A DNA stretch of 64,000 nucleotides from the NCBI GenBank assembly GCA_964473455.1, contig CAYYQX010000004.1, forward strand, positions 27,965 to 91,964, written 5' to 3'. The stretch comes from an uncultured Muribaculaceae bacterium (GTDB lineage: Bacteria > Bacillota_I > Bacilli_A > RF39 > UBA660). Shown piece by piece: positions 1-45,893 of this stretch (position 1 is the stretch's first letter; each line of letters opens with the position of its first letter). The position numbers and the translations under genes are program-made. The notes beneath the pieces were generated by a model. The model saw nothing but the letters and a program-made list of their open reading frames with translations. It was not told the DNA's origin and made no database searches.

Positions 1-147
1 ATAGTAGGTGGGGGAGACACTGCAGCCGCAGTTATCAATTTTGGTTATAAGAAATATATGACCCATATTTCAACTGGTGGTGGCGCCTTTTTGGAATTAA
101 TCGAAGGAAAAAGTTTGCCTGGAATAGAGATTATAGATGAAAAATAA
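1..147 (+). CDS. pgk: Phosphoglycerate kinase, C-terminal fragment (gene begins upstream of the window)
   Basis: Frame 1 translates to ...[48 protein letters not shown], the conserved PGK C-terminus. tpiA follows, as in the gap-pgk-tpi operon. Confidence 0.85.
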
Positions 148-1171: not shown

Positions 1172-1838
1172 TATGAAAATGAACCTTTTATTGTCAGAAA
1201 TACAAGAATATGTTAGTAAAATAAAACACGAAAACAATGTTATTATATGTCCAACAAGTATATATATTCCTTATTTTTCTTCATTTAACGTTGGTATTCA
1301 AAATGTATTTTACGAAAATAACGGTTCTTATACAGGAGAAATTTCTCCAAAACAAGCAAAAAGTCTTGGCGTTAATTACGCTATAATTGGTCACAGTGAG
1401 AGAAGAAGACTGTTTGAAGAAACAAACCAAATAATAAATAAGAAGATCAAAAAGGCTTTAGAAAATGATTTAAAAGTTATTTTGTGTATTGGAGAACAAG
1501 AAGGACAAAATTTAATTGAAACACTAAATACACAACTAGAAGAATGCTTAAAAGAACTTGAAAGTGTTACAAAAATAATAGTAGCCTATGAACCTGTTTG
1601 GGCAATTGGAACACAAAAAACCCCAACTATGGAACAAATATCCAAAACAATACAATATATAAAAGACTATATATATGGTAAATATGAAACCAGCATACTT
1701 GTTTTATATGGTGGAAGCGTTAGTAAAGATAACATCGAAGAGTTAAACAAAATAGAAAACGTAGATGGATTTCTGGTTGGAACAGCAGCCAAAAGTATTA
1801 ATGAACTTAATAAAATAATAGAAGTTACTAACAGGTAA
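1149..1838 (+). CDS. tpiA: Triosephosphate isomerase
   Basis: NMKMN, AIIGHSERR, YEPVWAIGTQKTPT and YGGSV motifs. RBS aaggag upstream. Confidence 0.9.
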   Translation: MKKLVIANMKMNLLLSEIQEYVSKIKHENNVIICPTSIYIPYFSSFNVGIQNVFYENNGSYTGEISPKQAKSLGVNYAIIGHSERRRLFEETNQIINKKIKKALENDLKVILCIGEQEGQNLIETLNTQLEECLKELESVTKIIVAYEPVWAIGTQKTPTMEQISKTIQYIKDYIYGKYETSILVLYGGSVSKDNIEELNKIENVDGFLVGTAAKSINELNKIIEVTNR

Positions 1839-1855
1839 CTTTTTTTAGGAGAAAA

Positions 1856-2554
1856 ATGGGAAAAATAAAAGTACTAATAATTGAAGATAATGAAAAACTA
1901 ATTGAAGAAATGAAAAAACATTTTAAAAATACAAACATAGAAATTGTTTATTCTGCAAATAATGGTGAATATGGTTTAGATTTAATAAATAAAAAAACAG
2001 ACTACGATGTGGTTATATTAGACTTAGTTATGCCGGATAAAGATGGATTATACGTTCTTGAAAATATTAAAAAAAAGATATTTAACAAAATCATTGTTTC
2101 TACAAGCAACAATTCACCTTATATAATAAATAAAGTGAGTTCATATGGCATCCCTTATTATTTATTAAAGCCTTATGATTTAACTATTTTAGAAAAAAGA
2201 ATATATGAAATAAGCGAAGCAAAAAGTAAATTAAATAATATAACAAAATTACTACATGAATTTGGTCTTCCTTCACATTTAAAGGGTAGTCAGTATTTAG
2301 AGGGGATTATAAATGAAGTGTATAATTCAAATACGGCAATAAAAGATGCTTATGAAAGTGTAGCTAAAAACTTAAATACAACTCCACAAAAAATAGAGCG
2401 CACAATACGTTACGCAATAGAAATAGGTTTTAATAGAGCAAACATTAGCTTTGTGGAGGAGAGTTTTGGCTCAAGCATTGATGCATTTAAAGGAAAACCA
2501 ACTAACACTGAGTTTTTATGGACTGTTGTAAATATGTTAAAATTAAAAAATTGA
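1856..2554 (+). CDS. spo0A: Spo0A-like response regulator (receiver domain plus Spo0A C-terminal DNA-binding domain)
   Basis: Receiver domain with phospho-acceptor context VVILDLVMPDKDG. C-terminus RTIRYAIEIGF...GKPTNTEFLWTVVNML matches the Spo0A_C signature (B. subtilis ...KPTNSEFIAMVADKL). RBS aggaga. Confidence 0.65.
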   Translation: MGKIKVLIIEDNEKLIEEMKKHFKNTNIEIVYSANNGEYGLDLINKKTDYDVVILDLVMPDKDGLYVLENIKKKIFNKIIVSTSNNSPYIINKVSSYGIPYYLLKPYDLTILEKRIYEISEAKSKLNNITKLLHEFGLPSHLKGSQYLEGIINEVYNSNTAIKDAYESVAKNLNTTPQKIERTIRYAIEIGFNRANISFVEESFGSSIDAFKGKPTNTEFLWTVVNMLKLKN

Positions 2555-2654
2555 AGTAAATAATCATCAAGAATTTTTGTGTTTACTTAAACAATTTCTA
2601 AAAATGGAGTGTAAATGTGCGCCAATCATATCAAACAAATGTATGTAAAAAGTA

Positions 2655-2683
2655 TTGACAAGCATTATATTCTATTATACAAT
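2655..2683 (+). promoter_or_regulatory. Sigma-A type promoter upstream of recA
   Basis: TTGACA (2655-2660), 17-nt spacer, TACAAT (2678-2683). No GAAC-N4-GTTC LexA box in the 150 nt upstream of recA. Confidence 0.5.
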
Positions 2684-2709
2684 TGTAATGTAATAGAGGA
2701 GGACTTAAA

Positions 2710-3720
2710 GTGAACAAGCAAGATAAAACTTTAGATCAAGTTTTAAGTGACATAGAAAAACAATTTGGCAAAGGCTCAATAATGAAGTTAGGCGATAATG
2801 AGTTTAAAAAAATAGATACTGTTTCTAGTGGTTCAATATCACTAGATATCGCTCTTGGAATAGGTGGTTATCCTAAAGGAAGAATTATAGAGATATATGG
2901 CCCCGAAGCGTCTGGAAAAACAACGTTTGCGTTGCATGCTATTGCCGAAGTGCAAAAAAAAGGAGGCAGAGCAGCTTTTATTGATGCTGAAAACTCTTTG
3001 GATCCACAGTATGCTGCTAAAGTAGGAGTTAACATTGATGAATTACTGTTATCGCAACCAGATAACGGAGAACAAGCACTTGAAATATGTGAAGCTTTAG
3101 TTAGAAGCGGAGCTATTAGTATTGTTGTTATTGATTCGGTTGCGGCTTTAGTTCCTAAAGCAGAAATCGAAGGAGAAATGGGAGACTCTCATATGGGTCT
3201 TCAAGCAAGGTTAATGAGCCAAGCTCTTAGAAAGTTAACGGCAATCATTAATAAAACAAATACAATTGCTATTTTTATAAATCAATTAAGAGAAAAGGTT
3301 GGAATTGTTTTTGGAAATCCGGAAACTACTCCTGGTGGTAGAGCACTAAAATTTTACTCTTCAGTAAGATTAGATATTAGAAGAGCAGAGCAGATAAAAT
3401 CAGAAACTCAAATAACAGGAAATAAAACAACAATAAAAGTTGTAAAAAACAAAATGGCGCCGCCTTTTAAAACTTGTACAGTAGATATATTATATGGTGA
3501 AGGAGTATCAAGAGAAGGAGAAATATGTGACTTGGCAACTGAAGCTAAAATAATTGAAAAATCAGGTGCTTGGTATTCTTATAGTGGAAACAGAATAGGT
3601 CAAGGAAGAGACAATGTTAGAGATTTATTTAAAAAAGATCAAAAATTAAGAGAAGAAATAGAGAAAAAAGTTAGACAATTTTATAATATTGATAAAGAAG
3701 ATGTTAAAGATAAAAAGTAA
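2710..3720 (+). CDS. recA: Recombinase RecA
   Basis: GPEASGKTT Walker A, FIDAEN and GGRALKFY motifs. GTG start 7 nt after RBS gaggagg. Confidence 0.95.
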
Positions 3721-11070: not shown

Positions 11071-13065
11071 ATGAAAAACATTTTGCGCATATTTTATAAA
11101 ATTATTAGATTTCCCCTATTAGTTATAAGGTTATTTTTCTTAGGAATTTTTAAAACTTTAAAAACATTTAGCGAATTAATTTATAATACTATAAAGTATT
11201 TTATCTATGGAGTAGTTTTTATTTCACACATCCTATATAGTATTATAAGTAAATTTATAAAGTATTTTACTTATGGAATAGTTTACATATTTGTCGTAAT
11301 GTATGTTTTATTTAAAAAAACAGGGCAATATTTATTATATTCTTTGGTTGTACTTAGTTTTATATTTTATAAAATTATTAAATACTTTTTATATGGAACT
11401 TACTTTCCGTTTGTTTTTGTTGTTGAAAAAAAACGCATAATTAGTGATAAAAACAGAGCTAAAAAAGAAAAGTTAAGAATAGAAAAAATAAAAGCTAAAA
11501 TAGAAAAGAAAGCTCAAAGACAAAGACAAGAAGAAGCAAGAGTAATAGAAAAAACAAGAATTTTAGATAAGAAAAAAGAGCTTAGAGACCAAGAGAAAAA
11601 AAGAAAACAGAGTCTTGAATTTATTAATGAAAATGTTTCAATAGAAGACATAGGCTTTAAATATAGATTGAAACAAGCATCTAATGTCTTTAATAACTTA
11701 CCTGAAAAGATCAAAAAGAAGTTAAAAAGCTGGTATGAAAATTTATCTTTCATCAAAGCTAGAAAGAACCGTTTTGATATAGAAAGACAAGAACTTCTAA
11801 TTAATTTTGAAGGTGAAGACGCTGTTAAGAGTACTAGAAAAATCCCATACGAGTATGTTGTTAAAACAAGTGATGGAAAAATCATTAGAGGGCATTATGA
11901 AGCTTTTTCAAAAGTCGAAGTTCACTCGTTTTTACTAAGTGAAAACTATGTTGTTTATAGTATAAAAACTTCACGTTGGATTCAGATAAAATATGGCAGA
12001 AAAGCAAATTCGAGAATGAAATTTAAAGTAAAAGATTTAGTTTTCTTTTTGACACAATTGTCAACATATATTAAATCGGGTATAACATTAGTTGAAGCTC
12101 TTAGAATTTTATCAAGACAATATAAAAATAAGCAATATAAGCAAGCAATTAGAAACATTATTTATGAGCTTACAATGGGTGAGAATTTTAGTAATGCGAT
12201 GGAAAAACAAGGAATGGCTTTTCCAAAACTACTTATCAACATGGTAAAAGCGTCTGAAATGACAGGGGAACTTCCAGAAGCTCTTGATGATATGGCTGAT
12301 TATTATACAGAGGCGGATAAAACAAGAAAACAAATGATAACAGCTATGACATACCCAGTTATAATTTTTGTTTTAGCTACTGCAGTTATCGTCTTTGTTC
12401 TATTATATGTAGTTCCAAAATTTACTGATATTTATTCTTCAATGGAAGGAACACAAATACCTGACTTTACAAAATTTGTAATGAATGCTAGTGCGTTTAT
12501 TAAAGAAAACGTTTTAAAAATACTTATAGTATTAGTAGTTTTATTAATAGCTGCTAGATATTTATACATATATATAAAATCATTTAAGACTATGATTCAA
12601 TGGATATTAATGCATATTCCGGTATTTGGAAATGTTATCATTTATAATGAAGTAACAATGTTTACTAAAACTTTTGCTTCTCTTTTAAAACACAACGTAT
12701 TTATTACTGAAAGTATGGAAATATTAACAAAGCTAACAAGCAATGAAATTTACAAAATGATAATATTAGATACTATTTCCAACTTAGCTCACGGAGATAA
12801 ATTGTCTTTATCATTTAAAAATCATTGGGCTTTTCCAATTCCAGCGTATGAAATGCTAGTAACGGGGGAAAAGACAGGAGAGTTGCCTGAAATGATGGCA
12901 AAAGTATCTTCATATTACCAGGAGTTACACAAAAACTCTGTGACTAGAATAAAAACTTTTGTTGAGCCAATATTAATTATATTTTTAACAGTTGTTGTTG
13001 GAGCAATTATTCTAGCTATAGTATTGCCGATGTTTAGCTTATATCAACAAGTTCAAGGCATGTAG
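11071..13065 (+). CDS. Type II secretion / type IV pilus platform protein (GspF/PilC/ComGB family) with an unusual ~300-aa N-terminal membrane plus coiled-coil extension
   Basis: The C-terminal ~350 aa carry two T2SSF repeats (FKVKDLVFFLTQLSTYIKSGITLVEALRIL...; ...LLKHNVFITESMEILTK...). The N-terminal region has 4 TM helices with a thrice-repeated IKYF(I/L)YG motif, then a K/E/R-rich coiled coil. Confidence 0.7.
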   Translation: MKNILRIFYKIIRFPLLVIRLFFLGIFKTLKTFSELIYNTIKYFIYGVVFISHILYSIISKFIKYFTYGIVYIFVVMYVLFKKTGQYLLYSLVVLSFIFYKIIKYFLYGTYFPFVFVVEKKRIISDKNRAKKEKLRIEKIKAKIEKKAQRQRQEEARVIEKTRILDKKKELRDQEKKRKQSLEFINENVSIEDIGFKYRLKQASNVFNNLPEKIKKKLKSWYENLSFIKARKNRFDIERQELLINFEGEDAVKSTRKIPYEYVVKTSDGKIIRGHYEAFSKVEVHSFLLSENYVVYSIKTSRWIQIKYGRKANSRMKFKVKDLVFFLTQLSTYIKSGITLVEALRILSRQYKNKQYKQAIRNIIYELTMGENFSNAMEKQGMAFPKLLINMVKASEMTGELPEALDDMADYYTEADKTRKQMITAMTYPVIIFVLATAVIVFVLLYVVPKFTDIYSSMEGTQIPDFTKFVMNASAFIKENVLKILIVLVVLLIAARYLYIYIKSFKTMIQWILMHIPVFGNVIIYNEVTMFTKTFASLLKHNVFITESMEILTKLTSNEIYKMIILDTISNLAHGDKLSLSFKNHWAFPIPAYEMLVTGEKTGELPEMMAKVSSYYQELHKNSVTRIKTFVEPILIIFLTVVVGAIILAIVLPMFSLYQQVQGM

Positions 13066-13079
13066 TAAGGGGATAGAAA

Positions 13080-13847
13080 ATGAATACGATATATACGATT
13101 TACTTTTTTATACTTGGGATTGTTTTTGGTTCATTCTTCAATGTTGTAGGCTATAGGCTTCCAAAAGAACAGTCTATCGTAAATCCTCCATCTCACTGCC
13201 CAAAGTGTAATCATAAATTGAAATTTTTGGAATTAATTCCAATTTTTTCTTTTTTAATTCAAGGTGGAAAGTGTAGAAATTGTAAACAAAAGATATCTTG
13301 GTTTTATACGATATTTGAACTTTTAACAGGTGTTTTATTTGCTTTAGCCTATCTAAGATTTGGAATATCTAATGAGTTAATCACAGCGCTTGTCTTTATT
13401 TCTATGTCCATAATAATTATAATAAGCGACTATCAAACATTTATTATTCCTGATGAGATTTTGGTTTTTGCAGGATGTTTTTTCTTAACATTTATTCTAG
13501 TTAATTCAGGTGTTGATCAATTTTTAATTTCTTTATTATCGGGAATTATATCTTTTCTTATAATGTATGCTTTAAAGAAAGTAGGAGACTTGTCTTTTAA
13601 AAAAGAATCTATGGGTGGTGGGGACTTAAAACTAATGTTTATCTTTGGTATTGTTTTTGGTTACCAGCTTTCTATTGTAGTCTTGTTTTTGGCTTCCATA
13701 ATTGGTCTTCCAATATCTATTATTATATTAAAAATTAAAAAAACGAATATTATTCCATTTGGTCCGTTTTTATGTATTGCTGCGCTTATTTTGTTGTTTT
13801 TCAACTTTAATTTTAACGATTTAATTAACTACCTTTTTTACTCTTAA
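13080..13847 (+). CDS. Prepilin peptidase (A24 family, PilD/ComC)
   Basis: N-terminal zinc tetracysteine CPKC...CRNC. Multi-TM. Aspartate-containing motifs (IIISDYQTFIIPDE; GGGDLKLM). Sits directly downstream of the PilC-like gene. Confidence 0.85.
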   Translation: MNTIYTIYFFILGIVFGSFFNVVGYRLPKEQSIVNPPSHCPKCNHKLKFLELIPIFSFLIQGGKCRNCKQKISWFYTIFELLTGVLFALAYLRFGISNELITALVFISMSIIIIISDYQTFIIPDEILVFAGCFFLTFILVNSGVDQFLISLLSGIISFLIMYALKKVGDLSFKKESMGGGDLKLMFIFGIVFGYQLSIVVLFLASIIGLPISIIILKIKKTNIIPFGPFLCIAALILLFFNFNFNDLINYLFYS

Positions 13848-20143: not shown

Positions 20144-20614
20144 ATGGCAGAAAAAAAAGATATATTTTTAACAGCCGAAGGCTTAGACAAATTAAGAAAA
20201 GAATTAGAATATTTAAAGTTTGAAAAAAGAGAAGAAGTAATAGAAAAGCTTAAAGAAGCAAGGGCTTTAGGAGACTTGTCAGAGAACGCGGAATATGATT
20301 CTGCCAGAAACGAACAAGCTCAAGTAGAGTCTAGAATTGCTGATATAGAAGCAAAGATAGAGAACGCGACTATTATAAAAGCAGTGAAGACTGATAAAGT
20401 TAGAATAGGTACTAATGTTAAGATAGAATATGTTGAAGATAAAGAACTTGAAGAATATTCTATTGTTGGTTCTAGCGAAGCAGATCCTTTTAATAACAAA
20501 ATATCTAATGAATCACCAATTGCCAAAGCAATAATGGGATTGATGATAGGACAAACAGCTAAAGTCGAAAGCCCTAGTGGTAAATACTTAGTAAAAATTG
20601 TTGAAATTTCATAA
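20144..20614 (+). CDS. greA: Transcription elongation factor GreA
   Basis: LTAEGLDKLRKELEYL, ...ALGDLSENAEYDSAR and a C-terminal FKBP-like domain. aaactac-aaaa-gtagttt terminator follows (20620-20645). Confidence 0.9.
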   Translation: MAEKKDIFLTAEGLDKLRKELEYLKFEKREEVIEKLKEARALGDLSENAEYDSARNEQAQVESRIADIEAKIENATIIKAVKTDKVRIGTNVKIEYVEDKELEEYSIVGSSEADPFNNKISNESPIAKAIMGLMIGQTAKVESPSGKYLVKIVEIS

Positions 20615-23920: not shown

Positions 23921-25876
23921 ATGATAAGCAAACCAAAAACACTAAAATTATTAGAAAAGCTAAATATAAGAACAGATACTGAACTGTTAGAATATTATCC
24001 TTTTAGATACGATATTATTCAAAGAAGTGATATTAATAGTCTTAGTCAAGACGATAATATCACGATAGATGGTATAGTAGAAGGAGTTCCTTTAGTTTAT
24101 TATATAAGTAGAAATTTAAATAAAATGACTTTTAAAATAAATGCTTCAGATAATTTATATAACGTAATTATTTATAATAGAGCTTTTTACAAGAGTAATA
24201 TAAAAAGTGGAATTACTGTGACTGTTATAGGAAAATTTGACAAAATACATAATACAATAGTGGCAAGCAACATGGAATTAAAACCATTAAATGAAATTCC
24301 AAGAATAAGTCCAATTTACCACACAACTCTTGGTATAACTAGTAAACAGATTAATTATTATGTTAAAAAAGTAAAGTTAAAGCTGGAAGAATTATTACCA
24401 AAATATCTGGTTGAAAAATATAAATTATATTCGAAAAACAAAAGTGTTTTTATAGTTCACAATCCAACAGATGTAAACACTTTAAAAAAAGCTCGATTGA
24501 CTTTAAAGTATGAAGAATTATTTTTATTCATGTTGAAAGTGAATTATTTAAGATTAAATAAAAACATTATTGGTTTAAAAAGAAGAGAGTGCAAAACAGA
24601 AGTAGAAGATTTGATAAGTCATTTACCTTTTGAACTAACAAAAGATCAAAAAACGGCAATAGATGAAATATATGAAGACTTAATAAGCAACAAAAGAATG
24701 AATAGATTGCTACAAGGGGATGTTGGTAGTGGAAAAACCATTGTTAGTTTTATTGCTACATATATAAACTTTTTAAGCGGATATCAAACAGCCTTAATGG
24801 CTCCAACTGAAATACTTGCTCTTCAACACTACAACAATGCCAAAAGGCTTTTTGGCAAAGATGTTAAGATAGGTTTATTAACGGGAAAGCTAAAGTTAAA
24901 AGAGAAACAAGAAATATATAAAAAACTAAATCAGGGAGAAATAGATGTTATAATCGGAACGCATGCTCTTTTTACTAATAATGTTGAATATAAAAACTTA
25001 GGTTTAGTAATAACAGATGAGCAACACCGTTTTGGGGTTTTACAAAGACTGAATTTAAAAAACAAAGGAATGATACCAGATATTTTATATATGAGTGCGA
25101 CCCCAATTCCAAGAACGTATGCTTTGACTTTATACGGAGATATGGATGTTTCAAATATAAAAACAATGCCAAAAGGTAGAAAAGAAATTATAACTTTGAT
25201 AAAAAAAGAAAATGAAATGAAAGATGTTTTAAAACTGATTCATCAAGAGCTTCTTTTAAAACATCAAATATATGTAATTGCTCCTTTAATAGAAGAAAGT
25301 GAAAAAGTAGATTTACAAAATGTTTATGATTTAGCAGAAAAGTTTAATCAAGCTTTTGGTAAAATATGTAGTATTGGGATTATGCACGGCAAAATGAGTA
25401 ATGCTGAAAAAGATAAGACAATGGATAAATTTAAAAAAAACGAGATATCAATTTTAATCTCAACAACAGTTATTGAAGTTGGAGTAGATGTTCCTAACGC
25501 TACGACAATGGTTATATTTGATAGTTTTAAATTTGGTCTTTCAACGCTTCACCAATTAAGAGGAAGAGTTGGCAGAAGTGATTTACAATCTTATTGCGTT
25601 TTAATAACCAATAAAGATAGAAAAAGGTTAGATATCCTTGTAGAAACAAATGATGGTTTTAAAATAAGCGAAGAAGATTTTTTATTAAGAGGAAGTGGCG
25701 ACATGTTTGGCTTTAAGCAAAGTGGCGATATGAATTTTAAAATAGCTAACATTAAAATGGATTATGAGTTATTATTAAAAGCTAAAGAAGATAGTTTAAA
25801 ATATTTAGAAAGTAAAGAATATTTAAATAACGAAAGTATCAAAAAAATGTTAATAGTGGATACAGATTTAAATTAA
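23921..25876 (+). CDS. recG: ATP-dependent DNA helicase RecG
   Basis: Wedge domain followed by helicase motifs GDVGSGKT, DEQHRFG and QLRGRVGR. Confidence 0.9.
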   Translation: MISKPKTLKLLEKLNIRTDTELLEYYPFRYDIIQRSDINSLSQDDNITIDGIVEGVPLVYYISRNLNKMTFKINASDNLYNVIIYNRAFYKSNIKSGITVTVIGKFDKIHNTIVASNMELKPLNEIPRISPIYHTTLGITSKQINYYVKKVKLKLEELLPKYLVEKYKLYSKNKSVFIVHNPTDVNTLKKARLTLKYEELFLFMLKVNYLRLNKNIIGLKRRECKTEVEDLISHLPFELTKDQKTAIDEIYEDLISNKRMNRLLQGDVGSGKTIVSFIATYINFLSGYQTALMAPTEILALQHYNNAKRLFGKDVKIGLLTGKLKLKEKQEIYKKLNQGEIDVIIGTHALFTNNVEYKNLGLVITDEQHRFGVLQRLNLKNKGMIPDILYMSATPIPRTYALTLYGDMDVSNIKTMPKGRKEIITLIKKENEMKDVLKLIHQELLLKHQIYVIAPLIEESEKVDLQNVYDLAEKFNQAFGKICSIGIMHGKMSNAEKDKTMDKFKKNEISILISTTVIEVGVDVPNATTMVIFDSFKFGLSTLHQLRGRVGRSDLQSYCVLITNKDRKRLDILVETNDGFKISEEDFLLRGSGDMFGFKQSGDMNFKIANIKMDYELLLKAKEDSLKYLESKEYLNNESIKKMLIVDTDLN

Positions 25877-29706: not shown

Positions 29707-29729
29707 GAAAGGGTTAAACCTTTCTTTTT
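29707..29729. terminator. Bidirectional rho-independent terminator between infB (+) and lexA (-)
   Basis: gaaagg-gttaaa-cctttc hairpin with T-runs on both strands. Confidence 0.7.
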
Positions 29730-30345
29730 AAAAACTCCTATATAAGCCAATAGCTTTTCCTAAAATAATTACTGTATTTAGAATAATTGGTTCCATATTA
29801 TCGTTTTCTGGCTGCAATCTGATGTGGTCTTTTTCTTTATAAAATCTTTTAAGTGTAACCTCATTATCAGTGGTCAGTGCAACTATAATATCGCCATTTC
29901 TAGCATCGTTCTTTCTTTCTACAATAACTATATCTCCATCAAATATTCCGGCATTAATCATGCTCTCACCGCTAACATTCAAAGAAAATACTTCTTTTCC
30001 TTTAGGAATTAAATAAGCTGGAATTGAAAAAAATTCATTTGGTCTTTCAATAGCTTCAATTGGGTTTCCAGCCGTAATTTTTCCTAATAGTGGTATTTCT
30101 ACAACATCATTTTCTTTTTTTAAATATTCGTTGTCTACCAGAACTTCAATTGTTCTGTTTTTAGCATCTTCTTTTCTAATAAAACCTTTTTTTGATAGAC
30201 ATTCTAAATGGGCCTGAACTGTTGCTGGAGAATTAACACTAATTGCTTTTCCAATCTCTCTTACTGTAGGTGGATAGCCATGAGATGCAATATAGCTTTT
30301 TACAAAACTTAATACATCACTTTGACGTTTAGTTAAATTTTCCAT
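29728..30345 (-). CDS. lexA: LexA repressor
   Basis: N-terminal wHTH (LTKRQSDVLSFV...GYPPTVREIG), Ala-Gly cleavage site context (GKITAGNPIEA), S24 peptidase Ser and Lys (SGESM ... KRF). Start at the ATG 5 nt downstream of a GGAGG RBS, not the upstream extension in the ORF track. Confidence 0.9.
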   Translation of the reverse strand: MENLTKRQSDVLSFVKSYIASHGYPPTVREIGKAISVNSPATVQAHLECLSKKGFIRKEDAKNRTIEVLVDNEYLKKENDVVEIPLLGKITAGNPIEAIERPNEFFSIPAYLIPKGKEVFSLNVSGESMINAGIFDGDIVIVERKNDARNGDIIVALTTDNEVTLKRFYKEKDHIRLQPENDNMEPIILNTVIILGKAIGLYRSF

Positions 30346-30392
30346 TGTACCTCCTAACTGTACACATCTTAACACAAAAGTTTGTTCTTGTC

Positions 30393-30404
30393 AAACAAAT
30401 GTTT
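30393..30404. promoter_or_regulatory. Imperfect LexA-like palindrome at the lexA -35 element
   Basis: AAACAAATGTTT (AAC-N4-GTT core) immediately adjacent to the lexA TTGACA (minus strand). Candidate autoregulatory site. Confidence 0.35.
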
Positions 30405-30420
30405 ATGAAACGATTGACAC

Positions 30421-30434
30421 GAACCTTAGTTCGT
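30421..30434. promoter_or_regulatory. LexA operator (Cheo box), perfect consensus
   Basis: CGAACCTTAGTTCG matches CGAAC-N4-GTTCG. It lies in the spacer of a TTGACA(30414-30419)...TAGTAT promoter for the divergent small gene, 76 nt upstream of the lexA start. Confidence 0.75.
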
Positions 30435-30466
30435 GATAGTATATGTTTGTATAGAGGAGGTATTTA

Positions 30467-30610
30467 TGAAAAAGCTTTTAGAAAATTTATTCCTTGTTGG
30501 TGTTTTAGTTTTTATATTAGGTTTTGTTTATATAAAAAGTGAACCAAAAGACAGCCTTGTTATAAATGAAACAATAAATGAAGAAGTAATAATTTATAAT
30601 ACAAAATAAA
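30467..30610 (+). CDS. Small single-pass membrane protein (47 aa) divergent from lexA; candidate SOS-induced cell-division inhibitor (YneA/SosA-like)
   Basis: MKKLLENLFLVGVLVFILGFVYIKSEPKDSLVINETINEEVIIYNTK. RBS gaggagg 6 nt upstream. The promoter overlaps the perfect Cheo box. Position divergent from lexA and upstream of tkt, as yneA in B. subtilis. Not in the ORF track (below length cutoff). Confidence 0.55.
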
Positions 30611-30668
30611 ACTTTATCTTTTATAAAATAGTTGATATAATTATTTTATGAAAATAGAGGTGTTTTTC

Positions 30669-32612
30669 ATGGATATAAAAATAGTTAACAATATTAAAAC
30701 GTTAGCCGTTGAAATGATTAACAAAGCAGGAAGCGGGCATACGGGCATTGCTCTTTCTGCTGCCCCAATTTTATATACTTTGTATAGTAGACATATTAAT
30801 ATTGAACCTAATCAACCAAATTGGATCAATCGAGATAGATTTGTTATGTCAGCAGGGCATGGATCTGCTCTTTTATATGCAACACTTTATTTTGCTGGAT
30901 ATAATATTAGTTTAGAGGATTTAAAACAATTTAGGCAAATAGATTCTAAAACGCCAGGACATCCAGAATTTGGAATAACTAGTGGAGTTGACGCCACAAC
31001 TGGTCCTTTAGGCCAAGGGTTAGGAACTGCTGTTGGTATGGCTTTAGCTTCTAAAATATTAGGTGATAAATATACTCTAAGTAATGGAATAAAAGATAAT
31101 ACTTCCTTAATCAACTACAAGGTATATGTTTTGTGTAGTGATGGAGATTTAATGGAAGGAGTAAGCTATGAAGCTGCTTCTCTTGCCGGAACACTTAATT
31201 TAGATAATTTAATTGTTTTGTACGATTCAAACAAAGTGAGTTTAGATGGCGATACTTCAAACACATTTACTGAAAATGTTATAGATAGATTCAAGGCAAT
31301 GGGTTGGTATACAGACCAAGTAAGAAATGGCTCTGATATAAATGAAATAGATGAAGCAATAGATGAAGCTAAGATGTCAGGAAGACCTTCTTTTATTGAA
31401 ATAAAGACAATAATTGGTAAAGGCACTAAATATGAGGGAACAAGTAAAGCTCATGGTCTTAGTTTAAATGATGAAGAAGTGTTAGAGATAAAAAGAAGAC
31501 TAGATATTCCTTTAGAACCTTTTTATGTTAATGAAGAAGCAGTAAGCTTTTTTAGAAGTACAGTAAAAAGTAGAAGTAATTATAAAGAGTGGAGCTTAAA
31601 TTTACAAAGATATTTAGAGTTTAATAAATTAGAAAAGCTTGATTTTTCAAGTGAAATAAATTTATTGGATTTAAAAATGGAATCAGACAAAAATACAACA
31701 AGAGATCTTAATCATATTGTTATGCAGGAAATTGGAAAAAGACTAGATAACTTTATTGGTGGCAGTGCCGATCTTAGAAGTAGTACAAGAGCTTATTTTG
31801 ATAACTTCGACGATATAAAAGACAGCCATTATAAAGGTAAAAACATTTGGTTTGGTGTTAGAGAACATGTAATGGGAGCAGTGCTTAATGGCCTTGCTTT
31901 ATCAAACATAAGATGCTTTGGCTCAACTTTTTTAGCTTTTTCAGATTACTTAAAACCAGCCATTAGAATGTCAGCCATAATGAATTTACCTGTAACTTAT
32001 ATATTTTCACATGATTCTGTTTCAATAGGAGAAGATGGACCAACGCATCAACCAATTGAGCAATTATCAAGTCTTAGAATGATTCCAAACTTAGATGTCT
32101 TTAGACCAGCTGATTTAAATGAATTAATAGGCTGTTGGAATGTGATTTTAAATAAACAAAACCCAAGTGCGTTAGTAATTTCTAAAGAAGTAATAAAAGA
32201 AGTACCAACAGATACAAGGATGACTATGAAGGGTGCTTATATAATTAAAAAAGAAGAAGATAGGCTTGACGGAATAATTATAGCGACAGGCTCAGAAGTT
32301 CATAAGGCATATTTTATTGCCAAGAAATTATATGAAGAGAAAAGGTTAAGTATTAGGGTTATTAGTATGCCATCAGTTAGTCTTTATAAAAAACAAAATA
32401 TAGAGTATAAAAATGAATTATTTCCTGTTGGTAAAAAAGTAATAGTAATAGAAGCGGGAGCTTCTGGTGCGTGGTATGAATTTGTATATAATAAAAATTA
32501 TTTATTAACGCTTGATGAATTTGGAGCTTCTGGTAAAAGTGAAGATGTTTTAAAAAAGTTTAACTTTGATTATGAAAGCCTTAAAAATCGTGTAGAAAGA
32601 CTATTAAAATAA
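30669..32612 (+). CDS. tkt: Transketolase
   Basis: GSGHTGIALSAAPILYTLY, SAGHGSALLYATLYFAGY, TPGHPE and GPLGQGLGTAVGMALA. ATG at 30669 follows RBS gaggtg. Confidence 0.9.
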   Translation: MDIKIVNNIKTLAVEMINKAGSGHTGIALSAAPILYTLYSRHINIEPNQPNWINRDRFVMSAGHGSALLYATLYFAGYNISLEDLKQFRQIDSKTPGHPEFGITSGVDATTGPLGQGLGTAVGMALASKILGDKYTLSNGIKDNTSLINYKVYVLCSDGDLMEGVSYEAASLAGTLNLDNLIVLYDSNKVSLDGDTSNTFTENVIDRFKAMGWYTDQVRNGSDINEIDEAIDEAKMSGRPSFIEIKTIIGKGTKYEGTSKAHGLSLNDEEVLEIKRRLDIPLEPFYVNEEAVSFFRSTVKSRSNYKEWSLNLQRYLEFNKLEKLDFSSEINLLDLKMESDKNTTRDLNHIVMQEIGKRLDNFIGGSADLRSSTRAYFDNFDDIKDSHYKGKNIWFGVREHVMGAVLNGLALSNIRCFGSTFLAFSDYLKPAIRMSAIMNLPVTYIFSHDSVSIGEDGPTHQPIEQLSSLRMIPNLDVFRPADLNELIGCWNVILNKQNPSALVISKEVIKEVPTDTRMTMKGAYIIKKEEDRLDGIIIATGSEVHKAYFIAKKLYEEKRLSIRVISMPSVSLYKKQNIEYKNELFPVGKKVIVIEAGASGAWYEFVYNKNYLLTLDEFGASGKSEDVLKKFNFDYESLKNRVERLLK

Positions 32613-33124
32613 TGGAAGAAATAGATATATTAGATAAATCTGGTAATAAGCTAGGGCTTAGTTTACCTCTAGAAGAAGTTCATAAAAAAGGTTTGTGGCA
32701 CGAAGCTATTCATATAATTGTCTTAAATAATAATAAAGTTTTTCTGCAGAAAAGATCAGATAGGATGATAACGTTTCCAAACATATGGGATATTTCTGTT
32801 GGGGGACATGTTAGTTCAGGGGAAGAGGCTTTAACTGCCGCTAAAAGAGAATTTTTTGAAGAGTTAGGACTAAATCCAGAAGAATATGAATTTGATTTTG
32901 CAAAAAGATATCAAGAACAATTGGTATATAATGATACTGCGATTAATGAATATGTTGATTTATACGTTGTAAAAATTGATGGTGTTATAAACTTTAACAT
33001 TAGTTCAAAGGAAATAAAAGAAGTTAAATGGGCTTCTAAAAGCGAACTTAATCAAATGATTACAAACAAAGACATTATCTACCACGAATATGATTATCAA
33101 ATATTAAACGAATTATTGAAATAA
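32612..33124 (+). CDS. NUDIX hydrolase
   Basis: Nudix box GGHVSSGEEALTAAKREFFEELGL. Overlaps the tkt stop by 1 nt. Confidence 0.8.
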   Translation: MEEIDILDKSGNKLGLSLPLEEVHKKGLWHEAIHIIVLNNNKVFLQKRSDRMITFPNIWDISVGGHVSSGEEALTAAKREFFEELGLNPEEYEFDFAKRYQEQLVYNDTAINEYVDLYVVKIDGVINFNISSKEIKEVKWASKSELNQMITNKDIIYHEYDYQILNELLK

Positions 33125-33175: not shown

Positions 33176-33391
33176 ATGGAATTATTTTTAGATATAGTAA
33201 AAATCCTTGGAGGATTAATAGTAGGGGCAGTTATAGGGTTTTTTCTTGCAAGATCTTATATGCAAAGGTATATGAAAAAAAACCCACCAATCAATGAACA
33301 AATGATAAAAGCGATGATGATGCAGATGGGAAGAACACCTAGTCAAAAACAAGTTAATCAAATGATGAAACAAATGACTAAATATATGTAG
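33176..33391 (+). CDS. yneF: UPF0154 family small membrane protein YneF
   Basis: MELFLDIVKILGGLIVGAVIGFFLARSYMQRYMKKNPPINEQMIKAMMMQMGRTPSQKQVNQMMKQM is closely similar to B. subtilis YneF. Terminator hairpin caaatgacta...tagtcatttg plus T-run at the 3' end. Confidence 0.85.
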   Translation: MELFLDIVKILGGLIVGAVIGFFLARSYMQRYMKKNPPINEQMIKAMMMQMGRTPSQKQVNQMMKQMTKYM

Positions 33392-33467: not shown

Positions 33468-33914
33468 ATGAGTATAACAGTAAGACAAGCAAAGGCAGTA
33501 GCTGAAAAAAAAGCTTATTATAAGGCTCTTTATGATGGGCAAAGTGATGATTCTTTTTCAGACAAAGCAAAAGAATATTATGACAAACTAAACTATTATT
33601 CAAGTTTCGATAATCTTGATGTAGCTAAGCCGCAAGATAATGATTCAGTTCAAGTAGGATCAGTAATTAGATTAAAAATGCCAAATAACAACATTTTTAG
33701 CTTTGAAATTGTTGATACGGTTATACATGGCATTGATGCAGTAGGCTCAGTTATATCGACCAAAAGCTCTCTTGGGCAAGTTATTTTAGGTAAAGAAAAA
33801 GGGCAAAAATTTACTTTTTTAAATGGAACGCAAGAAAACAAAATAAAAATTCTAGAAATTTCAGGATATGAAGAACCAGAATTAGGACACCAAAAAGTTA
33901 TTGAAAAAGTTTAA
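33468..33914 (+). CDS. Gre-factor C-terminal-domain-like protein (Rnk/GreA-CTD family)
   Basis: The C-terminal half VISTKSSLGQVILGKEKGQKFTF...KIKILEIS resembles the GreA/GreB FKBP-like domain (SPIGKALLGKKVGD...EILEI). The N-terminal half is not recognised. Confidence 0.45.
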   Translation: MSITVRQAKAVAEKKAYYKALYDGQSDDSFSDKAKEYYDKLNYYSSFDNLDVAKPQDNDSVQVGSVIRLKMPNNNIFSFEIVDTVIHGIDAVGSVISTKSSLGQVILGKEKGQKFTFLNGTQENKIKILEISGYEEPELGHQKVIEKV

Positions 33915-33938: not shown

Positions 33939-33952
33939 CAAACATATGTTAT
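33939..33952. promoter_or_regulatory. LexA-like palindrome overlapping the uvrA promoter -10
   Basis: caAACATATGTTat has the perfect AACATATGTT core of the Cheo consensus (CGAACATATGTTCG). It is embedded in TTGTTC(33927-33932)-17-TATAAT(33950-33955). Confidence 0.45.
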
Positions 33953-37211: not shown

Positions 37212-37300
37212 CAATTATTTTTATAACAAATTGTCATAAGTTCTTTTGACTTTTAAAATATAGTGTGCTAGAATAAATTTTAGATAACATGGAGGATAAA

Positions 37301-37702
37301 ATGGGATTTAGCTTTAAGAAACTCTTTGCCGAGAAACAAGAATCTTTTGTCAATGGTGGAGATGAGTTTTACGAAATAAAAACAGATGCGTTAATGGAAG
37401 AAGGCGGCAGTAAAATGATTCTTCTGGAACCAAGAGCGTATTCTGAAAGTCAACAAATTGCTGATTATCTTAAAAAAAGAAACACAGTTGTTGTTAATTT
37501 AAAAAGAGTAACATCAGATCAAGCAAAAAGAATAGTAGATTTTTTGTCTGGAACTATTTATGCTTTAAATGGTGACCTACAAAAAATAGGCGGAGGCATA
37601 TTCTTATGTACTCCAAATAATATGGCTGTTCAAGGAAAGATAACAGAAGAAAAAGAAGGAAAAGGAATTCACGATAACGACGATATAAATATCGAGTGGT
37701 AA
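37301..37702 (+). CDS. sepF: Cell division protein SepF
   Basis: [66 protein letters not shown] is the conserved SepF (DUF552) core. ATG at 37301 after RBS ggagg. Confidence 0.9.
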
Positions 37703-37721
37703 AACATTTAGAGGTGGAAAT

Positions 37722-38210
37722 ATGAAAAAATTTACAATTGTAAGTCAAGGTTACGATAAAGATGAAGTAAATTCTTTTCTTGACGAACTTATTGTTAGAT
37801 TTGAAAAAATGATTAAAGAGATAAACGAAAAAAACGATATGATTTCCACTTTAAGAATGGACCTTTCTAAAAACGGATTTAGTCCTGAATTAGAAAGAGA
37901 AAACAAAAACCTAAAAGATAAAGTTGAACAATATAAAGCAATGGAAGAAACATTAAATAAAGCCATATTAATGGCTCAAAAAACTTCTGATCAAATGAGA
38001 TTAACTGCTCATAATGAAGCAGAAGTAATAACTACAGAAGCTAGAAGTAATGCGAACAGAATCGTAAATGATGCTTTAATGAAAGCAGATAAAGTTCAAG
38101 TAGAAGCAGATACATTAAGAAGAAACTTAATTGTATTTAAAAGAAGACTAAGAAGTGTTATTGAAACACAATTAGATCTTGTAGATGATATTGAAAAAAT
38201 AGAATTATAA
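37722..38210 (+). CDS. divIVA: Cell division protein DivIVA
   Basis: N-terminal GYDKDEVNSFLDEL lipid-binding/DivIVA motif followed by coiled coil. Position sepF-divIVA-ileS as in Bacilli. Confidence 0.85.
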   Translation: MKKFTIVSQGYDKDEVNSFLDELIVRFEKMIKEINEKNDMISTLRMDLSKNGFSPELERENKNLKDKVEQYKAMEETLNKAILMAQKTSDQMRLTAHNEAEVITTEARSNANRIVNDALMKADKVQVEADTLRRNLIVFKRRLRSVIETQLDLVDDIEKIEL

Positions 38211-41962: not shown

Positions 41963-42619
41963 TTAGGCTTTTTCTATTGTAATAGTATAAAAACTTTTTC
42001 CTCGATATTTATTTTCAAAAAAATCATCACTACTATTGTAGGTAAATACAGTTAAAGTAATAGGGGACTTTACTTGACTTATGTCAGTGCTTGGAACATA
42101 TAACTTTATGTTTGTCAAAAGAGTAGTACTATTAAATCCACTCATTTCAACATGGCTATACCTTGCTCCTTTTGTTTGATGTAAGCTGTCATATAAATAA
42201 ATGAAAATATAAGGTGAAAAATAATACATATCACTTGGATCTAGAACAGTTTTTTCTAAGAAAGTTCCATCATTTAAATAAAAGGAAATATAGTAACCAA
42301 TCTTATAATTATCAATGTTAGGATAATTGGAGTATTTTGCCCAAGCATCTTGATAATAGGAATAACTTATATGTTCTTCATTTGAGTAAATAGCGGTAAA
42401 TGTTGCAATGTCAGTTTGTGGTGTTAAAGGGGTTTTATAATTAGTAATTAAATTTCCACTTTTATATAATCCAACTGTTATAGGATTTAAATCAATATAA
42501 GTAGAGTCGGGGAATATAATTTGTTCATTAGTTTCTTTTTTCTCACTACTATTAAAATAAAGTAAAATGCCAGAACCAATAAATAAAATAATTATCCAAA
42601 ATATAAGTAACTTTTTCAT
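41963..42619 (-). CDS. Hypothetical exported or membrane-anchored protein (218 aa, Tyr/Asn/Ser-rich)
   Basis: N-terminal signal/TM (LLIFWIIILFIGSGILLYF). Shares a bidirectional terminator (aaaagcctaattaggcttttt) with mscL. RBS ggtgag. Confidence 0.5.
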   Translation of the reverse strand: MKKLLIFWIIILFIGSGILLYFNSSEKKETNEQIIFPDSTYIDLNPITVGLYKSGNLITNYKTPLTPQTDIATFTAIYSNEEHISYSYYQDAWAKYSNYPNIDNYKIGYYISFYLNDGTFLEKTVLDPSDMYYFSPYIFIYLYDSLHQTKGARYSHVEMSGFNSTTLLTNIKLYVPSTDISQVKSPITLTVFTYNSSDDFFENKYRGKSFYTITIEKA

Positions 42620-42674: not shown

Positions 42675-44045
42675 GTGATAAAATTGATACAAGTAGATTC
42701 AAGAAGAATAAAAAAAGGCGATACTTTTGTAGCTCTAAGAGGTATATCAGGAGATGGACATAAGTTCATTGAAACAGCTATTAATAATGGAGCAGTTAAA
42801 GTAATAGCTGAAGAGGGTAATTATAGTGTTGAGACTTTAATAGTAGAAGATACTAGAAAATACTTAACTGATTATTTAACAACAACTTATAAAACAATGC
42901 TTGAAGATATGACAATAATAGGCATAACAGGCACAAACGGGAAATCAACTACAGCGCATCTTATTTATCAAGCACTAAATTTAATGGGTAAAAAATGTTC
43001 TTATATTGGAACAATTGGGTTTTTTATTGCAGACAGAAAAATTGAACTTCCAAGTTTACCTAATACAACACCAGATATTTTAGAACTATATCAAATGTTT
43101 GAAGAAAGCTATAATAATGGTTATAAATATGTTGCAATGGAAGTTAGCAGTCAAGCTTTAGCTGTTGATAGAGTAAAAAAAATTAAATTTGACTATACTA
43201 TTTTTACAAACATTTCAGAAGAACATCTTAATCTACACGGAACTATGGAAAAATATATTCAAGCAAAACAAATTTTGTTTAAAGAATTTAACAGTGTTGC
43301 TTTAATTAACTATGATGATTTAGAAAAAGACAAATTTGTATTTGCCAATAATAAAAATTTTTTCTTTGGTTTTAATGGTGGAGATTTAAAAATAAGTAAT
43401 TATGGATTAGAAAGTGATAAAACGACAATTGAATATATTTATCAAAATAAAACATATAAAATCGCAAGTAACTTAATTGGTAAATATAATATATATAATA
43501 TGATTGCGACTATTTTGTTATTAATAAAATTAAACATCAATATTGATGAAATAAATAGAGTAGTGCAAGAGCTAAAGTCACCAGAAGGCAGAATGGAAAA
43601 AATAAGCTATAAAAACAATTTAATTATTATTGATTATGCTCATACACCAAAAGGCCTAAAAAGTTTACTTGACACAATTCAAAATGTTAATCATAACAAC
43701 ACATATGCAGTTTTTGGTTGTGCGGGAGAAAGAGATCGTAGTCAAAGAAGCGTTATGGCAAACACTATAATGGCAAACGTCACTAAATTAATTATTACTA
43801 ATGATGATCCTCATGAAGAAGATCCAAATCAAATTGTAAGCGATATGGTAAAAGAAGGACGTCATAATAATTATGAAATTTGCTTAGATAGAAGTAAGGC
43901 TATTGAAAAAGCTATTGCACTTTTAAAAGGAAATGATATCTTATTAATTCTTGGTAAAGGTCATGAAGAGTATATGATAGTAGGTAAAGAAAAAGTTCCT
44001 TTTAATGATAAAAAAGAGGTTGTAAAGTACATTAACAATATTTAG
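42675..44045 (+). CDS. murE: UDP-N-acetylmuramoyl-L-alanyl-D-glutamate--diamino-acid ligase MurE
   Basis: DSRRIKKGDTFVALRG, GITGTNGKSTT P-loop and C-terminal FGCAGERDRSQR...TNDDPHEEDP. GTG start only 7 codons before the DSR motif and 7 nt after a TATAAT; no RBS is visible, so the transcript may be leaderless or the start uncertain. Confidence 0.8.
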   Translation: MIKLIQVDSRRIKKGDTFVALRGISGDGHKFIETAINNGAVKVIAEEGNYSVETLIVEDTRKYLTDYLTTTYKTMLEDMTIIGITGTNGKSTTAHLIYQALNLMGKKCSYIGTIGFFIADRKIELPSLPNTTPDILELYQMFEESYNNGYKYVAMEVSSQALAVDRVKKIKFDYTIFTNISEEHLNLHGTMEKYIQAKQILFKEFNSVALINYDDLEKDKFVFANNKNFFFGFNGGDLKISNYGLESDKTTIEYIYQNKTYKIASNLIGKYNIYNMIATILLLIKLNINIDEINRVVQELKSPEGRMEKISYKNNLIIIDYAHTPKGLKSLLDTIQNVNHNNTYAVFGCAGERDRSQRSVMANTIMANVTKLIITNDDPHEEDPNQIVSDMVKEGRHNNYEICLDRSKAIEKAIALLKGNDILLILGKGHEEYMIVGKEKVPFNDKKEVVKYINNI

Positions 44046-44942: not shown

Positions 44943-45893
44943 TTACTCGTTTTTTAATATATCTTTAATTTTTTCTGTGTTTTTAAAATTCAATTTTGCT
45001 ATTTCATTTAACTTATCAAAGCCAAACGTTTTAACAATTTTAGCCCCAACTTCATCTACTAAGTTACTGGCTCCTTTGGGAATAGCAATACCTAAATCTT
45101 TACTTATTTTGTTACACTCTTGAATAAATATAAATCTACTAATAATTGATGCTGCCGCAACACTTAAACACTTATCTTCACCTTTAGTAAGAAAAGTTAT
45201 TCCTCTTACAATGTTACTGCTTTCTTTCAAATAGTTATAGTAAACAAAGGGTTTTGCAAACTCATCGACTACAATATAATCATACACATAATCTTTATTG
45301 ATTAAATTACTTAAAACATTATTGTGCAGAATAGCTTTTAATTTATTCATGTTGTTTTCTTTACTGTATTTTTTATTATATTCACTGTTTGATAAAACAA
45401 GACTACTATAAGGAATTTGTTTAATTAATTTAGGAACTATTTCTAGTATTTTTTCATCTGTTAATTTTTTAGAATCTTTAATACCTAAATTTTCTAAAGA
45501 TTTAATATCTTCTTTTTTGACATAACAACTAGTTACAACAATAGGTCCAAAAAAATCTCCTGTTCCAACTTCATCAGATCCAATTGTACTAGCGTAATAT
45601 ACTTGAATTTCTTTTTTCAATTCTTCTTTTTTTTCTTTTTTATCTTCACTGTTTTTAACATCGACTTTTTTGTCTGGATTAAGGTGTTTTTCCATTTCCA
45701 TCCACATATTAGCGTCAATGTCAGCAGACAAACCTTGAAACACAGCTTTATTAGATTCATATAGTGTCACAACGGTGTCTTCTTCATCAGCTTGAAAAAG
45801 AGCATAAGCTGGTGTTTTAAGTCTTTTTTTATCTTGAAAATACTTCATCATTTTCTCTTTAGTATTGTCGCTAATTTTTAAAGTTATAGTCAT
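44943..45893 (-). CDS. rnhC: Ribonuclease HIII
   Basis: RNase HII/HIII catalytic core (DEVGTGDFFGPIVV; DSKKL) with the ~90-aa N-terminal extension typical of RNase HIII. rnhC-cvpA neighbourhood as in B. subtilis (rnhC-zapA-yshB). Confidence 0.8.
   Translation of the reverse strand: MTITLKISDNTKEKMMKYFQDKKRLKTPAYALFQADEEDTVVTLYESNKAVFQGLSADIDANMWMEMEKHLNPDKKVDVKNSEDKKEKKEELKKEIQVYYASTIGSDEVGTGDFFGPIVVTSCYVKKEDIKSLENLGIKDSKKLTDEKILEIVPKLIKQIPYSSLVLSNSEYNKKYSKENNMNKLKAILHNNVLSNLINKDYVYDYIVVDEFAKPFVYYNYLKESSNIVRGITFLTKGEDKCLSVAAASIISRFIFIQECNKISKDLGIAIPKGASNLVDEVGAKIVKTFGFDKLNEIAKLNFKNTEKIKDILKNE

Follow-up and report, generated by a model that had tools for sequence, protein, structure and literature searches.

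What does the gene that lies back to back with lexA in an uncultured gut bacterium encode, and could its product pause cell division after DNA damage? The locus in question lies in a stretch of 64,000 nucleotides (nt) from contig CAYYQX010000004.1 (assembly GCA_964473455.1), which we refer to throughout as the window, and it pairs the gene for the SOS repressor LexA with a divergently transcribed small gene for a protein of 47 amino acids (aa). Small LexA-controlled membrane peptides account for the division pause that follows DNA damage in most non-enteric bacteria. Few of them have been studied (YneA, SosA, ChiZ, DivS, and SidA), these share no sequence, and new lineages call for genomic logic. 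Our analysis firmly supports the view that the gene is genuine, under selection, and tied to lexA, that its promoter contains a LexA operator, and that it encodes a bitopic membrane peptide of ca. 45 aa; we consider it very probable that this is a genuine LexA-regulated gene for a membrane protein. The locus thereby gives a candidate for a large uncultured clade of the human and animal gut whose members are labeled Mollicutes or Tenericutes. Systems of this kind are well known, and the slot divergent from lexA is one that specialists would expect to find filled. What is new, to judge from our searches, is the family that fills it, which is unnamed, has neither a domain model nor a literature, is not detectably related to YneA, is shorter than YneA and SosA, and lacks LysM.

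A LexA-boxed gene divergent from lexA

The locus comprises the following elements, in window coordinates; LexA sites, being palindromic, are given without a strand.

29728-30345, minus strand: lexA, SOS repressor, 205 aa plus stop (TIGR00498, 228 bits against a cutoff of 111; LexA_DNA_bind and Peptidase_S24)
30366-30394, minus strand: lexA promoter (-35 TTGACA at 30394-30389, 17-nt spacer, TG-extended -10 TAAGAT at 30371-30366; 10 of 12 consensus positions)
30375-30388: weak and uncertain third LexA-like site, CAAAAGTTTGTTCT, filling the spacer of the lexA promoter
30392-30405: LexA operator 2, CAAACAAATGTTTA, overlapping the lexA -35 element (autoregulation)
30414-30442, plus strand: small-gene promoter (-35 TTGACA at 30414-30419, 17-nt spacer, TG at 30434-30435, -10 TAGTAT at 30437-30442)
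30420-30433: LexA operator 1, the exact palindromic Cheo box CGAACCTTAGTTCG, abutting TTGACA and filling the spacer between the -35 and -10 elements
30454-30460, plus strand: Shine-Dalgarno sequence GAGGAGG, 5 nt ahead of the small-gene ATG
30466-30609, plus strand: small gene (47 aa), read as an open reading frame (ORF) with its ATG at 30466 and a TAA stop at 30607-30609

The two promoters diverge within an intergenic region of 120 bp. A consensus scan matched the small-gene promoter at 10 of 12 positions, with a TG extension besides, and operator 1 is placed where bound LexA would have to occlude RNA polymerase, a point that we regard as firmly supported. Operator 1 is the sole exact box match in the 64 kb, where 0.01 is expected per window, and an exact match arose in 1 of 100 dinucleotide shuffles of the window. 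It is likewise the only match when up to one mismatch is allowed and the only perfect GAAC-N4-GTTC. A first-pass annotation, made from the letters of this DNA alone, had described a perfect LexA box in the spacer of a TTGACA...TAGTAT promoter, followed by a 47-aa ORF with a gaggagg ribosome-binding site. All of these elements are present, and the protein sequence is as it was given; each position, however, had been set one base too high (e.g., the box at 30421-30434 instead of 30420-30433).

A position weight matrix (PWM) trained on the boxes of relatives only, and then scanned over the 64 kb, ranked operator 1 first (30420, 16.3 bits), operator 2 second (30392, 14.3 bits), and a site ahead of recA third (2632, 13.8 bits); the scores of single sites overlap the maxima of shuffles, and it is the placement of the top three alone that is persuasive. 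The recA site and its surroundings read as follows.

2632-2645: LexA-like box CAAACAAATGTATG, upstream of recA (2710-3720, GTG start at 2710, identified by Pfam)

This box precedes the TTGACA(2655)-17-TACAAT promoter of recA, and it shows that the motif marks probable SOS genes in this genome. The fourth PWM site, CGAACAAATGTATT at 23863, is weaker and lies ahead of recG (23921-25876), uvrA (33979) has a weak site only (7 bits at 33939), and a search with the strict LexA consensus found no box at other SOS genes in the window. The third site beside lexA, CAAAAGTTTGTTCT, scores 9.4 bits and is present only in the window and its closest relative, L002, in an alignment of intergenic regions (A2). 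The 28 bp that separate operators 1 and 2 are the modal spacing among relatives, 10 of 16 loci in which both boxes are near consensus having a spacing of 28 to 29 bp. Both hexamers of the lexA promoter are kept in 13 relatives, and in the LexA translation one can read the Ala-Gly cleavage site within ITAGNP and the Ser/Lys dyad within GESM and LKRF. We find it strongly indicated that LexA represses the small gene and that the SOS response induces it.

The product of the small gene, MKKLLENLFLVGVLVFILGFVYIKSEPKDSLVINETINEEVIIYNTK, begins with MKKLLE (net charge +1), continues into a transmembrane (TM) helix at ca. residues 7 to 23, and ends in an acidic tail, KSEPKDSLVINETINEEVIIYNTK (net charge -2). 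It has one hydrophobic helix (Kyte-Doolittle value, 2.58), and AlphaFold2, supplied with the family alignment, places a helix at residues 3 to 24 and gives the tail low confidence. The mRNA leader is predicted to be only ca. 16 nt long, with the Shine-Dalgarno sequence exposed. We also considered a GTG start at 30433, which was used for relative P0002, and rejected it, as it falls inside the operator and the -10 region; the 47-aa, ATG-started form is the right one because the GTG lies upstream of the likely transcription start. The gene had been presented as unannotated and likely to be missed by automated annotation. This proved wrong: gene callers had already found the exact 47-aa protein, which appears without a name in an NCBI record (a contig of 123,566 bp) and in Logan assemblies, and dozens of homologues have been called as well. 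A single-sequence homology search with the window protein returned only itself and one relative at 70% identity.

Conservation of the small gene in relatives

We collected 80 loci by searching with LexA as the query. In 50 of these (L003 to L052), all from gut metagenome-assembled genomes (MAGs) labeled uncultured Bacilli, Mollicutes, Tenericutes, or Mycoplasmatota, LexA is 56 to 80% identical to that of the window, and 49 have enough upstream sequence to be assessed. One relative, Candidatus Pelethosoma, is filed under Mycoplasmatota incertae sedis. Conservation of the ORF at the lexA-divergent position had been proposed as a check on the first-pass reading, and an ATG-started ORF of the same build, 33 to 52 aa long (43 to 52 aa in all but 3), is found there in 43 of the 49 assessable relatives. 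Shine-Dalgarno-like motifs precede nearly all of these ORFs, which begin ca. 120 to 200 nt away from the start of lexA, or 230 and 314 nt away in two of the loci. A further locus, L046, has an atypical TM ORF of 31 aa in the slot, and five relatives (L011, L016, L023, L033, and L039) have lost the gene.

In about a dozen loci, tkt follows the small ORF. At the others, at least 10 different genes take that place, among them M16 peptidases, rpsB, rpsP, a miaB-like gene, glycosyltransferases, and yneF; therefore, the small gene travels with lexA and not with tkt. When family members were instead picked by sequence search (P0004, P0086, P0013, and P0045), all four were found to lie divergent from lexA.

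The promoters have been kept along with the gene. In the A2 alignment, which covers 13 intergenic regions, the lexA -10 region, the block GTCAAACA...TTTGTT (operator 2 plus the lexA -35 element), and, on the small-gene side, TTGACA-CGAA...GTTCG-TG-TA..AT are invariant or nearly so, while the sequence between the blocks drifts. The box, or a CGAAC...GTAT variant of it, follows TTGACA in essentially all 45 loci; where a strict search saw operator 2 alone, the small-gene promoter reads TTGACA-CGAACAAATGTAT(T), with a degenerate right half. The two-operator LexA switch is thus compact and deeply conserved, and a defined SOS reporter for these organisms could be made from it.

A variant of this architecture occurs in the P0004 subfamily (L019, L022, L027, L030, and L035), whose small-gene promoter has two overlapping LexA-type boxes, CGAACAAATGTATT-TG-CGATATAATGTTCG, ca. 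30 to 50 nt before the ATG, the -10 element TATAAT being embedded in the second box. In the genomes of this subfamily, recA lies ca. 4.4 kb downstream of the small gene.

An ORF this short and A+T-rich could in principle encode nothing of use. It might have arisen by chance or be a leader ORF of tkt, within a 5' region under LexA control (there is no G+C-rich terminator before tkt, so the LexA-controlled transcript may reach it), or it might be the decayed N-terminal stump of a yneA gene. We consider this very improbable. Nei-Gojobori ratios of nonsynonymous to synonymous substitution rates are below 1 in all 13 pairs of 50 to 99% identity (range, 0.10 to 0.83; window versus L002, 0.51), the Shine-Dalgarno motifs are conserved, and length is kept in the 43 relatives and in the ca. 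117 sequence clusters described below, with no longer, LysM-bearing forms among them. Since the gene stays with lexA where tkt has been replaced by at least 10 other genes, we rejected the idea of a leader ORF for tkt; a yneA stump is opposed by the lack of profile similarity to YneA.

A family of short bitopic peptides

A profile built from the 43 locus-derived proteins (alignment A1) retrieved 100 clusters, mostly of 43 to 52 aa (E-value up to 1; 63 clusters at ≤0.001), none of which has a name or a Pfam domain. A HMMER pass over 1.84 billion representatives yielded 117 clusters (50% identity) at an E-value of ≤0.001, all of them short; no cluster among those representatives has an added domain or a longer form. 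The assembly collection lists one member, P0004, in 513 of its blocks. The window protein joins this family by way of L003, whose LexA is 80% identical to that of the window and whose small protein is 36% identical to the window protein and scores 32 bits against the family hidden Markov model (HMM). We assign the small gene to an unnamed lexA-adjacent family of uncultured, walled, low-GC gut Firmicutes.

The build of the family is uniform, with an N terminus of ca. 8 aa (net charge +2), a helix of ca. 18 aa, and a polar tail of ca. 21 aa (net charge ca. 0). The net charge of the N terminus exceeds that of the tail in 34 of 45 members, a layout that favors a predicted N-in/C-out topology. Just ahead of the helix, a Lys and a Gly are conserved; the helix itself has an early Tyr, a Gly or Ser at its middle, and an Ile at its end; and beyond it come a Ser directly after the helix and a Val/Ile pair near the C terminus. 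In 61 of 105 members, the final 12 residues include a hydrophobic patch followed by a polar residue, compared with 15 ± 3.5 when tails are shuffled.

An n-region (MKK), a hydrophobic core, and a polar tail are also the ingredients of an exported peptide, and a small residue (Ser) often follows the core. One could thus imagine a signaling peptide, its hydrophobic segment cleaved off as a signal peptide and its tail of ca. 22 aa released after DNA damage. We give this idea almost no credence: the core, at 17 to 20 residues, is as long as a TM anchor and not as a signal peptide, a conserved AXA or lipobox site is lacking, and conservation runs the wrong way, the supposed signal being the most conserved part and the "mature" tail the least.

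Comparison with known SOS membrane proteins

The slot that the small gene occupies is that of yneA, as the first-pass annotation had recognized. The gene order in Bacillus subtilis, lexA-yneA-yneB-ynzC-tkt-yneE-yneF, matches the order lexA / X / tkt ... yneF that we find in the window. The likeness to YneA extends to a LexA box in the promoter and to an N-terminal TM anchor, with a C terminus that is predicted here to lie outside. The family differs in being small, under half the length of YneA, and in having no LysM domain; the absence of LysM had been noted for the window protein, and it holds for the 43 relatives too, none of which gave a LysM hit, whereas 10 of 10 YneA-like controls did. 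Profile-to-profile alignment (hhalign) of the family (A1) with a YneA-like set (A4) returned a probability of 0.8%. On these two grounds, the hhalign result and the missing LysM domain, a relationship to YneA was rejected. The TM helix of YneA binds TM7 of FtsW, and it is the binding of LysM to peptidoglycan that delivers the block (PMC13396833, 2026). Because YneA needs this LysM-peptidoglycan binding, the inhibitory step of the small protein cannot equal that of YneA.

The slot is filled differently in other Firmicutes. Lachnospiraceae and Tuberibacillus (among loci L053 to L082) encode TM-plus-LysM proteins of 105 to 150 aa there. In Lactobacillus, Vagococcus, and Bavariicoccus it holds a soluble YnzC/DUF896-like protein, and in several Clostridium species an acidic, Cys-rich protein (MT.KYTEDDYCD...CDNCGKC).

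The soluble protein in the Lactobacillales slot means that this position does not always house a division inhibitor, and with it comes the question of whether the small protein might be a LexA-regulated membrane protein of another kind, engaged with a membrane protease, a transporter, envelope stress signaling, or competence or pilus functions and having no direct effect on division. A real gene, a LexA operator, and a membrane helix are all neutral as to function, and no homology to any characterized protein was found. We nevertheless think another role rather unlikely, given that all characterized small bitopic lexA-divergent proteins of Gram-positive bacteria (YneA, SosA, ChiZ, and DivS) are division inhibitors, that the build of the family fits this class, and that the clade has no YneA-type gene at the locus.

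The closest architectural counterpart is SosA of Staphylococcus aureus, a LexA-controlled, lexA-divergent protein of 77 aa with a TM segment at residues 10 to 30 and an extracellular part without LysM (PMC6851548). SosA and YneA are both LexA-controlled, lexA-divergent division inhibitors of N-in/C-out topology (PMC6851548). The small protein shares with SosA its position, its control by LexA (predicted here), and its small bitopic form, with an N-terminal TM segment and a C-terminal part that is free of LysM and, in the small protein, predicted to be extracellular. The two differ in size (77 aa with a tail of ca. 47 aa in SosA; 47 aa with a tail of 24 aa here) and in habitat, the family coming from MAGs of uncultured gut Bacilli or "Mollicutes" and SosA from staphylococci.

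SosA requires residues Y40, E41, D44, and H45 for its activity, and its turnover depends on the last 10 residues, the removal of which mimics a ctpA protease mutant (PMC6851548). We compared the window protein with SosA fragments rebuilt from the primers of that study (MFYNKYKN..., ...ISAHSE, EMTDHQI, TINKAYE, and ...TNNSEQRDGKVFALIN), and the comparison extends as far as these fragments reach. Among the rebuilt fragments, the active motif EMTDHQI has no counterpart in the tail of the window protein, KSEPKDSLVINETINEEVIIYNTK. The SosA C terminus, ...RDGKVFALIN, with its hydrophobic patch and Asn, does resemble the family's ...EVIIYNTK, ...VVALNK, and ...IIAVNK, which we treat as a lead. The earlier label "SosA-like" is therefore apt for the architecture but not for the length, nor for the membrane-proximal SosA residues that could be reconstructed, which the window protein lacks. 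SosA has been reported from staphylococci only, among which it is 25 to 60% identical (PMC6851548). Homology to SosA may be undetectable because SosA itself is this variable.

At the lower end of the size range, SidA of Caulobacter crescentus is a LexA-induced, minimal single-TM peptide of 29 aa that imposes a late division block via FtsW/FtsN; therefore, a peptide of such small size can suffice for a late division block. It differs in belonging to a Gram-negative alphaproteobacterium and in having no sequence relation to the family, and its gene is not known to lie next to lexA. SidA is predicted to bind the opposite face of FtsW TM7, and AlphaFold 3 places SosA, ChiZ, and SidA on FtsW too, with low confidence (PMC13396833). 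We view the small protein as a probable architectural analogue of SosA and SidA.

Single-TM peptides of 27 to 29 aa with LexA-boxed promoters are also known from Escherichia coli, namely, TisB and DinQ. The same logic could apply here, making the small protein an SOS-induced membrane toxin that depolarizes or perturbs the membrane and leads to growth arrest or persistence without targeting the divisome. The TM segment is the best-conserved part of the family and the tail is variable, as such a role would allow, and a single family member matched the model of the type I toxin YonT, at a marginal E-value of 0.1. We judge this explanation distinctly unlikely. TisB and DinQ act by depolarizing the membrane and are controlled by antisense RNAs and long processed leaders, and they have no linkage to lexA, whereas strict placement opposite lexA is a hallmark of checkpoint genes such as those for YneA and SosA. 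Type I toxins have long structured leaders that require processing; the leader here is predicted to be ca. 16 nt with a strong, exposed Shine-Dalgarno sequence. No antitoxin RNA is evident: an Rfam scan of the locus for an antitoxin or small RNA gave nothing credible, the consensus scan of the antisense strand found only a 9-of-12 promoter-like site (chance level), and no more than ca. 60 nt separate the small gene from the next one. Finally, the conservation of a polar tail of ca. 21 aa and of the motif at its C terminus points to a specific interaction outside the cell.

A candidate division inhibitor

Genes for SepF, DivIVA, and a Mur ligase lie in the window (37289-38210 and 42675-44045), and relatives carry a sortase, Ddl, and an M23 peptidase close to the locus; therefore, a wall-building divisome exists to inhibit. 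The clade clearly appears to build septal peptidoglycan despite its "Mollicutes" labels.

We lean slightly toward the proposal that the LexA-repressed, 47-aa bitopic protein (predicted N-in/C-out) delays division after damage. In its steps, we infer LexA binding, damage induction, topology, division target, and degron alike. In the undamaged cell, LexA dimers on operators 1 and 2 would shut both divergent promoters. Upon DNA damage, activated RecA would prompt LexA self-cleavage, and the strong TG-extended promoter and strong ribosome site would then give a burst of peptide. The peptide would enter the membrane, where its TM helix may contact the late divisome (the septal peptidoglycan synthase formed by FtsW and a penicillin-binding protein [PBP]) and delay septation in the manner of YneA, SosA, and SidA. 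The C-terminal hydrophobic patch would probably allow an extracellular PDZ or tail-specific protease to grip the peptide and so end the arrest. More tentatively, and with some doubt on our part, the family may represent the smallest SOS checkpoint effectors of Gram-positive bacteria, unrelated in sequence to YneA and SosA, which would stop septal wall synthesis with hardly more than a TM helix (with its conserved Lys, Gly, Tyr, and mid-helix Gly positions) that docks on FtsW and would have as their off switch a short C-terminal tag recognized by an extracellular PDZ protease.

A number of findings count against this proposal or loosen the tie between the window protein and the family. Scans of the window protein and the 43 relatives against Pfam, NCBIfam, and PHROGs produced scattered hits of the TM-noise kind, with no family hit by more than two members, and the hhalign comparison with YneA came out as low as reported above. 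In YneA the inhibition is delivered by the extracellular domain and not by the TM helix, and TisB and DinQ illustrate that a small TM peptide under LexA control may be a membrane toxin instead. The small gene is dispensable, because five of the 49 relatives have lost it. No ftsW, pbp, ctpA, or PDZ-protease gene is present in the window. The window protein is, moreover, best regarded as a divergent member of its family, in that it lacks the K-K-F-G-G and Tyr positions of the other members. When it and its two nearest relatives were left out of the HMM, its score was 13.8 bits, a value matched or beaten by 1 of 3,000 full shuffles and reached by 64 of 3,000 shuffles that preserve the architecture (ca. 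0.02). Comparison with L002 reveals near-identical TM segments and differing tails, the 24-aa tail being fast evolving.

If the division-inhibitor proposal is true, activity in ca. 45 aa without a peptidoglycan-binding domain would narrow the minimal needs for inhibiting the septal FtsW-PBP synthase, a question made topical by the 2026 work on YneA and FtsW. On the more tentative reading, with docking on FtsW, the family would be the minimal natural FtsW-inhibiting peptide, and the lexA-divergent slot of Firmicutes would have been refilled repeatedly by nonhomologous peptides converging on the same target.

Neighboring genes and other observations

Downstream of the small gene, on the same strand, lie the following features.

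30612-30659, plus strand: A-U-only hairpin followed by GUGUUUUUC, in the gap between the small gene and tkt (fold, -15.3 kcal/mol; z = -3.15)
30669-32612, plus strand: tkt (transketolase; Pfam), downstream neighbor outside the module
32612-33124, plus strand: NUDIX gene (Pfam/NCBIfam scans)
33176-33391, plus strand: yneF (UPF0154; Pfam/NCBIfam scans)

The hairpin was not called by a G+C-based terminator scan and overlaps the ribosome site of tkt. It is possibly a weak terminator or attenuator; otherwise, transcription would read through into tkt, and on the SOS transcript the hairpin could occlude tkt translation.

Between yneF and uvrA lies a gene (33468-33914, plus strand) for a 148-aa protein that has the C-terminal domain of GreA/GreB alone, without the N-terminal coiled coil; the canonical greA is found at 20144-20614. 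The strand bias of the window is pronounced, the only large ORFs on the minus strand being lexA, 41963-42619, and 44943-45893 (RNase HIII-like).

The region 11071-13847 encodes a 664-aa T2SSF-type protein and a prepilin peptidase, and the organism probably makes a type IV or competence pilus. At 1856-2554 (plus strand) there is a Spo0A homologue with a receiver domain and Spo0A_C (82 bits), although relatives of this lineage are deposited as Mollicutes, Tenericutes, or Mycoplasmatota; the homologue suggests that the clade stems from Firmicutes that sporulate or use Spo0A, or still belongs to them.

Lastly, two contigs, L084 and L085, have phage-like genes (reverse transcriptase, Phage_tail_APC, and a CHAP-plus-CW_7 lysin) at 1-3060, upstream of lexA, which suggests that a prophage or diversity-generating retroelement has inserted beside the lexA locus there.

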